From positions 1 through 35,248 of the IMG/VR virus record IMGVR_UViG_2563366961_000002: a stretch of DNA of 35,248 nucleotides; one strand, 5' to 3'. Under the pieces are notes generated by a model. The model did not search any database. It was not told the origin of the DNA and saw nothing but the letters and a program-made list of their open reading frames with translations. The stretch comes from a virus. Its lineage: Duplodnaviria; Heunggongvirae; Uroviricota; Caudoviricetes. Both the position numbers and the translations under genes were made by a program. Positions 10,982 through 11,596 of the stretch are shown here, one piece after another (within the stretch, counting starts at the first letter, position 1; every line of letters starts with the position of its first letter).

Positions 10982-11596
10982 TTAGATATCTCTGCTGTCT
11001 CCATTAGGAAATAAAAGATAATATGGATTTGCCTTTCTTGCTCTCCTTGCTTCACCCGGATACCTGTTAGTCAGTAGCTTGCATAATGAGCAGAGAACAA
11101 CACTCAAGAAAATTCCGAATGAGAAGATCAATATCTCACCAAAAATCAATGGCGATATTAAATTTTCAGGATTTAATGATAAGTCAATGTTAAAAACATA
11201 TTGAGCAATACCAGTAAGTATCAATAATATAATCCCTATGGAATACATTGCTGTTTCCCAAACATCAGACAGTCTATTTTTGAATTGTTCGCTGGAGTAG
11301 TAGTTTGTTATAAAGTCAGAAAAATCACTCTCATATGCATCATCTTTAGGTGATGTTAGAAATCCTCTGTCTCTCCATACCTTCTCCCAATTAGTCGATT
11401 CTTTTTTTAAGGAAAAATAAATATGTATTCCCAAAAGGATAGCCAAAATTGGTGTTAGCTCTAAAAAATAGAATGTTATGGAATAAATAATACTGCCATG
11501 TTCAAACTCATCTGGGACTATCATGTATGCACAAAAATAAATTGAAAAGTACACCATGCAGATAGTTAGCAATTCTTTAGTATCTTTTCTGCTCAC
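10982..11596 (-). CDS. orphan integral membrane protein, about 4 TM helices, in an AT-rich island
   Basis: GTG start 7 nt after AAGGGGG; four hydrophobic stretches; local GC far below neighbours. Confidence 0.55.
   Translation of the reverse strand: MSRKDTKELLTICMVYFSIYFCAYMIVPDEFEHGSIIYSITFYFLELTPILAILLGIHIYFSLKKESTNWEKVWRDRGFLTSPKDDAYESDFSDFITNYYSSEQFKNRLSDVWETAMYSIGIILLILTGIAQYVFNIDLSLNPENLISPLIFGEILIFSFGIFLSVVLCSLCKLLTNRYPGEARRARKANPYYLLFPNGDSRDI

Follow-up and report, generated by a model that had tools for sequence, protein, structure and literature searches.

A gene at positions 10982..11596 (minus strand) of the IMG/VR record IMGVR_UViG_2563366961_000002, a stretch of 35,248 nucleotides (nt) analysed at its full length (the window), encodes a protein of 204 amino acids (aa) that is almost certainly homologous to the SieA superfamily of superinfection-exclusion proteins. 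We consider it likely that this gene is an unannotated and very divergent relative of sieA encoding an exclusion protein, a function that we infer because homology, architecture and position match those of SieA. All records seen list it as “hypothetical protein”. The group of proteins to which its product belongs (the window clade) adds a deeply divergent branch to SieA. What is shown here for the SieA-like protein and its gene is homology to SieA, retention of conserved residues, synteny, nucleotide composition, a predicted topology, and selection of the purifying kind.

Homology to SieA proteins

Similarity to SieA was observed in searches with single sequences and with profiles. The window protein matches PHROG 7745, named “SieA-like”, with an E-value of 4.4e-4, and its 50%-identical Citrobacter homolog does so with 2.2e-6. 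In BLASTP, the window protein is 34% identical to the SieA of prophage HS1 over 118 C-terminal aa, and 29% identical to P22 SieA over 108 aa. Comparison of alignments with hhalign gave 98.4% (E 4.7e-15) for the window clade against type B SieA, over 182 columns and essentially full length, and 96.4% (E 1.1e-9) against type A. A hidden Markov model (HMM) built from types A and B only assigned 50.7 bits to the window protein (E 8e-12 at Z=1e6) and no score to any other open reading frame (ORF) in the window with 60 or more aa. In the reverse search, a profile combining the window protein with two of its close relatives retrieved 42 proteins at E<1e-3 from 1.84 billion representatives. The best two looked-up matches from outside the clade, P0050 and, faintly, P0051, carry Pfam PF26849 SIEA on record, as does the lower-ranked match P0056. 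A remote-homology search had been proposed as a check in an earlier description of this DNA (the original prediction), and the relation to SieA was found in this way with hhalign, the HMM and PHROG.

Only N107, R108, R178 and P180 (numbered as in the window protein) do not vary across an alignment of 41 superfamily sequences. All four are found in the window protein, together with the near-invariant S101, D111 and A183. Its conserved motifs, both predicted to be cytoplasmic, are YYSSE..NRLSD at aa 99-111 and TNRYPGEARRARK at aa 176-188, the latter situated within a CKxLTNRYPGEARRARK block. In the superfamily, these take the forms YSSE..NRxSD and the published RYPxEA. When compared to FxRYPxEAxxFNK, the published cytoplasmic C-terminal motif of SieA (PMC10883804), TNRYPGEARRARK retains the core R-Y-P-x-E-A and the final K, which we counted as agreement with the motif. 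A form with T..xRK is common to many uncharacterised metagenomic members of the SieA family.

Predicted topology and structure

Hydropathy reveals four hydrophobic segments in the SieA-like protein (about aa 9-27, 36-57, 112-137 and 150-168). AlphaFold2, supplied with the 41-sequence family alignment, predicts four long helices at 3-30, 36-66, 105-141 and 150-176, with a mean predicted local distance difference test score of 86.4 and a predicted template modelling score of 0.72. Both results agree with the membrane protein with four transmembrane (TM) helices that had been proposed originally. The two short loops are devoid of lysine and arginine; all 18 such residues of the loops and termini belong to the N-terminus, the loop at 58-111 or the C-tail. 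According to the positive-inside rule, this distribution predicts that both termini face the cytoplasm (N-in/C-in). The predicted architecture corresponds to that of the SieA family, which is characterized by three TM helices in type A, four in types B and C, and a cytoplasmic C-terminus.

Position of the gene beside gene 16

The neighbour of the sieA-like gene is the following:

8857..10962, plus strand: P22 gp16-family DNA ejection protein, 701 aa (RefSeq product name; PHROG 770/29117; PF26808 on homologs)

This protein is 30% identical to P22 gp16 and 76% identical to its counterpart in the Citrobacter locus. P22 gp16 is one of two proteins to which SieA-escape mutations map (PMC10883804). 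Since the 701-aa gene is of the gp16 type, the sieA-like ORF occupies the P22 sieA slot. The gene that follows gene 16 in tail-to-tail arrangement is sieA in P22 and type B sieA in HS1, and the window gene lies in the same manner beside gene 16 and convergent with it, in a window that itself lacks gene 9 (tailspike). All SieA cases examined by Leavitt et al. are in P22-like prophages, with the gene between 16 and 9 (PMC10883804). The convergence with the 701-aa gene, which was also part of the original prediction, leaves 19 nt between the two stop codons, compared to 22 nt in P22 and 21 nt in HS1.

Among isolated phages, the closest gp16 is that of Escherichia phage N7 (L017 6902-8143; 67% identity). 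In N7, the segment from gene 16 to mnt harbours three unrelated small genes and no SieA, and the slot is therefore exchangeable.

Start region and nucleotide composition

Features of the gene and its start region are listed below.

10982..11596, minus strand: sieA-like gene, 204 aa, GTG start, four predicted TM helices, predicted N-in/C-in (ORF list; hydropathy)
11602-11609, minus strand: Shine-Dalgarno (SD) sequence AAAGGGGG, 5 nt ahead of the GTG of the sieA-like gene
11597..11609, minus strand: translation-initiation region AAAGGGGGTTGGT before the GTG, read from the sequence
11673..11684, minus strand: 12-mer CTTGAAATCCCG, positions -88..-77 upstream of the sieA-like gene

RefSeq calls the identical 615 nt as a coding sequence, with the product name “hypothetical protein” in every Escherichia coli record inspected. 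The originally described ORF with its ribosome-binding site stands. The start regions of P22 sieA (CTAAGGAGGTTGGTGTG) and of the window gene (CTAAAGGGGGTTGGTGTG) are close. The SD/start region of the latter (11597-11612) is a near-copy of that of P22 sieA, despite the proteins being <20% identical overall. Farther upstream, the 12-mer CTTGAAATCCCG is identical to a 12-mer at -85 of HS1 (type B) sieA, and is possibly part of a promoter or regulatory region. HS1 sieA is functional with 106 bp of upstream DNA (PMC10883804). A scan of 10900-13200 with Rfam disclosed nothing credible.

The sharp AT-richness noted earlier was confirmed. GC content of the sieA-like gene is 33.2%, compared to 45.6% in the window, 47.5% in the 701-aa gene and 47.2% in the upstream spacer, and comparable AT-richness is reached in just 1.15% of 615-bp segments across the 35-kb window. 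Low GC content is a SieA family trait, also present in the characterised relatives P22 sieA (33.7%) and HS1 sieA (36.3%). An AT-rich non-coding spacer was rejected as a reading of 10982..11596.

Relatives, distribution and selection

The description of the gene as an orphan, solitary membrane protein did not hold, because homologs exist in at least four other genera and the protein is a member of the SieA superfamily, encoded in a conserved gene-16/sieA module. In E. coli, an allele at least 99% identical occurs in 103 of the 5426 complete genomes, and in 102 of these 103 it is full length. Close relatives of the window protein are few. Other clade members were found in Citrobacter freundii (50% identity), Serratia fonticola (40%) and Providencia rettgeri/Proteus mirabilis (P0048; 33%). 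In the three divergent members, the gene is placed between gene 16, with which it is convergent, and mnt, whose orientation it shares, in a P22-like neighbourhood. The Citrobacter locus is a recognisable P22-like prophage, extending from coat through arc, ant and tailspike to integrase. Metagenomic loci of the clade show the same gene 16/mnt neighbourhood, and one of them extends to the coat gene.

A tblastn search with the window protein and two clade members gave no match in 50,697 phage records. The control search with P22 SieA matched 41 of the same records, and the negative results in phage records are therefore real. Profile search of contigs of GTDB species representatives revealed no match to the window-clade alignment, nor to P0056.

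Between genera, the proportion of synonymous differences (pS) is 0.74-0.81, and thus saturated, while the proportion of nonsynonymous differences (pN) is 0.34-0.44. As pN is far below saturated pS, the SieA-like protein is under purifying selection. Conservation in the clade is concentrated in the soluble motifs and not in the TM helices.

Comparison with known SieA types

SieA types A, B and C are ~25% identical to one another (Leavitt et al. 2024; PMC10883804). Type B, represented by prophage HS1 of E. coli HS (EcHS_A0321 / WP_000717773.1, 212 aa), likewise has four predicted TM helices, including the extra N-terminal helix, shares NRLSD and NRYPGEAR with the window protein, and is encoded by an AT-rich gene arranged tail-to-tail with gene 16. 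Differences between the two include a global identity of only 17%, the motif (FNRYPGEARKFNK in type B, TNRYPGEARRARK in the window), and the partner gp16, which in type B is of another type (30% identity to the window gp16). In addition, Pfam SIEA is on record for type B and not for the window protein, and the HS1 prophage retains head and tail genes.

Type A (P22 SieA, 162/164 aa) has in common with the window protein the C-terminal core of two TM helices and both conserved motifs. Its gene occupies the same slot in the same orientation relative to gene 16, and has a nearly identical SD/GTG start region. P22 SieA differs in having three TM helices, without the N-terminal helix of the window protein, and global identity is 15%. 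While type A is present in 41 sequenced Salmonella phages, the window clade is present in 0 of the 50,697 phage records.

Type C, with the reference sequences MU9_2893 and HMPREF1563_1315, is found in prophages of Providencia, Morganella and Proteus, and is described as extended further at the N-terminus, where it has an additional TM helix (PMC10883804). By this published description, an additional N-terminal helix is a feature that type C shares with the window protein. E. coli SieAs were stated to be of type A or B only, with type C confined to the three genera above (PMC10883804). One entry of Table S2 in that paper, A1UM_02908 of E. coli KTE75, might be the window protein itself. The Morganella protein P0060 (FNRYPGEARVYNK), a candidate type C, is a better fit to FxRYPxEAxxFNK than the window clade. 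It shares 35% identity with type B, and 20% with the window protein.

Global identity of the window clade to types A and B is 15-17%, compared to 25% between A and B. Correspondingly, hhalign of A against B gave E 7.8e-29, and with the E-values given above, both types are farther from the window clade than from each other. The clade forms a cluster separate from types A and B at every threshold tried. Judging by these sequence comparisons, it is probably a fourth SieA type, with type C compared by its description and the candidate P0060 only.

Membrane proteins that block injection of phage DNA are also known outside the SieA family. T4 Imm is an inner-membrane injection blocker that follows the logic of a resident element. 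HK97 gp15 and Ltp of TP-J34 are, as the window protein would be in the reading proposed, membrane proteins of a resident element that block genome entry (PMC10883804). No sequence similarity of the window protein to HK97 gp15, T4 Imm or Ltp was detected (PHROGs matched only as SieA-like, and PADLOC gave nothing). These three target long-tailed or T-even phages, and not P22-like podophages.

Proposed mode of action

P22 SieA is a protein of the inner membrane that prevents the injection of DNA by P22-like phages only, is also active in E. coli, and has little effect on growth (PMC10883804, and its supplement for the latter). P22 SieA and HS1 SieA are each sufficient to exclude P22-like phages, and the type B protein of HS1, although only 24% identical to P22 SieA, behaves indistinguishably (PMC10883804). 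Mutations that escape SieA map to the C-termini of gp16 and gp20 (PMC10883804).

By analogy with type A of P22 and type B of HS1, the SieA-like protein would be expressed from the resident element and located in the inner membrane, with both termini and both conserved motifs facing the cytoplasm. Incoming P22-like podophages would be stopped at the inner membrane by interference with assembly or function of the trans-envelope DNA conduit formed by gp20 and gp16. Such interference might be direct, or could proceed via occlusion of a host factor such as YajC. Phage DNA would then never reach the cytoplasm and the cell would survive, which corresponds to exclusion and not to abortive infection.

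Few known defences act when the DNA of short-tailed phages enters the cell; SieA belongs to them, and the gp16/gp20 conduits that it recognises are very diverse. The window clade narrows the conserved core to S101, N107, R108, D111, R178, P180 and A183, all on the predicted cytoplasmic side. An exclusion gene that has gone unrecognised may be present in about 2% of complete E. coli genomes, which would bear on host range of P22-like phages and on transduction.

Several observations weigh against assigning an exclusion function to the gene. Aligned in full with characterised SieAs, the protein is just 15-17% identical to them, and the flanks of the C-terminal motif deviate from the published form, with T for F and ARK for FNK. 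Pfam SIEA, on record for types A and B, P0050 and P0056, is absent from the precomputed record of the clusters of the window protein, P0003, P0046 and P0048; according to these precomputed fields, the window clade is outside the reach of the current PF26849 model. For the SieA-like protein, nothing meaningful was matched by Foldseek in BFVD and PDB or by a profile searched against PDB sequences; no SieA structure exists for comparison. A promoter/terminator scan and a relaxed sigma-70 scan did not find a canonical sigma-70 site or a convincing promoter or terminator. Coat, portal, terminase and tail genes of a complete P22-like prophage are missing in E. coli copies, in which the gene resides on a chromosomal island, and the biological role of the protein could be tuned to that element. 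Residence in a P22-like prophage is, on the other hand, a matter of context and does not define the SieA protein family. Finally, membrane location, exclusion activity and target range are those that we infer from characterised SieAs.

Alternative explanations

The island setting suggests that the protein might be a SieA homolog with a role tied to the island. In a lock-and-key relation with the island ejection proteins, it could, for example, exclude helper or competitor phages while sparing particles equipped with island gp16/gp20, or it could control entry of sibling islands. This is consistent with the fact that every examined E. coli copy is found in an island comprised of integrase, AlpA, Ant, Ash and primase genes with gp14-gp7-gp20-gp16 and without capsid or tail genes, and that a Vibrio island has the order integrase-AlpA-Bro-gp20-gp16-SIEA. 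In addition, divergence of SieA follows that of gp16 in the clade (76/62/34% identity in gp16 and 50/40/33% in SieA), although such co-divergence is expected from simple linkage. P22 SieA, however, excludes P22 itself, and types A and B are indistinguishable in specificity towards very different ejection proteins (PMC10883804). Considering also that there is no sign of the island being mobilised or packaged, and that in the window gp20 is destroyed by the insertion sequence IS1 while the sieA-like gene is intact, we regard an island-tied role as rather unlikely. The same damage to gene 20, together with further deletions mediated by insertion sequences (IS) in other strains, could indicate a functionless passenger, that is, a relic of a decayed P22-like prophage which was fused to another island and is kept by linkage. 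Within E. coli, alleles are at least 99% identical and selection is not measurable. Yet 102 of 103 genomes retain an intact ORF, and among them are copies that lost all DNA of the island upstream of gene 16 in IS events. When genera are compared, pN is much lower than saturated pS, and the residues conserved are the superfamily-invariant ones. The island itself recurs at 98-99% identity in 158 genomes, with intact ejection-protein genes in the copies L013, L015 and L018. A passenger is thus very unlikely.

Among the roles named in the original prediction (abortive-infection effector, immunity protein or superinfection-exclusion factor), superinfection exclusion gained support from SieA homology and from the sieA slot, whereas an abortive-infection (Abi) effector or toxin did not. 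A small multi-TM protein on a mobile element, located beside a slot that in some strains holds an Abi-family gene and with weak Pfam matches to MnhB and DUF2162, would also be compatible with an Abi effector that disrupts membranes, with a toxin of the holin kind, or with a small transporter whose function has no relation to SieA. All such matches are under curated cut-offs. The best Pfam match reaches 15.7 bits against a cut-off of 22.5, and NCBIfam 13.3 against 139.75, so that homology to a housekeeping transporter, indicated originally as an outcome that would contradict the proposal, amounts to sub-threshold noise, and this candidate was rejected. PADLOC detected 0 families at E<=0.01 for the SieA-like protein and its neighbours. 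The absence of a PADLOC match and the specific, reciprocal homology to SieA led us to reject a holin or Abi toxin as well, and P22 SieA is nearly harmless to growth (PMC10883804). Explanations of this kind are extremely improbable.

The island carrying the gene

The window represents E. coli chromosomal DNA (100% matches). In the window and in eight inspected E. coli copies, the gene is part of an island of ~18-19 kb, or of its remnants, at tRNA-Thr (thrW), and a reduced version of the island exists at yicC-yicG. The island occupies positions 1-14913 of the window, and clean copies are L013 4484-23719 and L018 272-17514. At least 80% of window positions 1-12900 is present at 98-99% identity in the 158 complete E. 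coli genomes mentioned above. Features of the island other than those already listed are:

2681..5440, plus strand: Zn-ribbon/TOPRIM/DUF927 primase (Pfam, PHROGs)
6203-6664, plus strand: gp14/DUF2824 (Pfam DUF2824, PHROGs)
6658-7335, plus strand: gp7 (Pfam P22_gp7, PHROGs)
7335-8084, plus strand: truncated gp20 (Pfam Inj_translocase, PHROGs)
8080-8847, minus strand: IS1, 768 bp (inverted-repeat ends, InsA/InsB ORFs)
11788-11803, 11841-11856 and 12074-12089, plus strand: three same-strand copies of GACMAGTACGCGCGCG (span 11781..12093), within the 520-bp upstream spacer of the sieA-like gene
12118-12339, minus strand: 73-aa C-terminally anchored protein (PHROG 6324), in the variable cargo slot; no Pfam match
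12419-12874, minus strand: 147/151-aa protein, at the position of mnt in P22-like prophages; no Pfam match
13134..13415, plus strand: PerC-family transcriptional activator (Pfam PerC, E 3.7e-30)
13464-13479, plus strand: fourth copy of GACMAGTACGCGCGCG, after perC

The order of island genes is integrase, AlpA-like excisionase/regulator, Ant, DUF4222, Ash, small ORFs, primase, gp14-gp7-gp20-gp16, and the sieA-like gene on the opposite strand. Beyond the latter are a variable slot, the gene of the 147-aa protein, and perC, after which the variant represented by the window and L013 has two more genes. In all copies examined, perC is close to the right-hand end of the island.

IS1 replaces the 3' half of the gene-20 homolog (roughly codons 250-470), the last 3 codons of which abut gene 16. 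The intact gp20 in island copy L013 has 473 aa. The same IS1/gene-16 junction, with different DNA on its left-hand side, was observed in NZ_OZ547117 and NZ_LR898874, and this implies later IS1-mediated rearrangements. In other strains, everything upstream of gene 16 is lost in an IS-mediated manner, and the sieA-like gene is still intact.

The repeat-rich flanks described in the original prediction are present on one side only. Upstream of the gene, they are substantiated by the three copies of GACMAGTACGCGCGCG, with a fourth at 13464. IS1 is at 8080-8847, and the 19 nt towards the 701-aa gene contain nothing repetitive or notable. Four copies of GACMAGTACGCGCGCG were reached in 0 of 100 shuffles, and the first three are found also in the Abi-variant island L015.

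Elsewhere, the variable slot, which separates the sieA-like gene from the 147-aa gene, harbours an Abi-family protein on the opposite strand (L012 21671-22633, L015 15485-16462 and L016 15485-16462). It has the look of a small defence hotspot.

The island context is a more unusual observation than the gene itself. The layout resembles that of satellites of the phage-inducible chromosomal island (PICI) and P4 type, and a literature search found no published satellites with ejection-protein genes. It is conceivable, although unlikely, that the island is a new kind of phage satellite of P22-like podophages, endowed with its own ejection proteins instead of capsid-remodelling genes and with SieA as the matching gate. 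If so, genomes of helpers or competitors would be kept out by SieA at the inner membrane, and island ejection proteins, packaged into helper virions, would decide who still enters. The island raises the question whether satellite-like elements traffic ejection-protein genes together with SieA.

An island in Vibrio proteolyticus (L010 1-12612, GCA_054890685.1) comprises integrase, AlpA, Bro-N, gp20, gp16 and a protein with Pfam SIEA. It is unrelated to the E. coli island, and in it the gene for SieA runs in the same direction as gene 16. The Vibrio island is thus a second case of a module of ejection proteins and SieA located outside a full P22-like prophage.

Adjacent to the E. coli island is another integrative element, at ~15000-28400 of the window, which encodes a major capsid protein at 21695-22723 and a “phage baseplate protein” at 26228-26941. 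Its tyrosine integrase gene (27023-28357, minus strand) is followed by yagU/ykgJ/ecp. A stretch of ~32% GC at 18.5-20.8 kb in this element has few annotated genes. In strain 2011EL-1370-2, the adjacent element is positioned on the opposite side of the island, and the two are therefore separate elements arranged in tandem.

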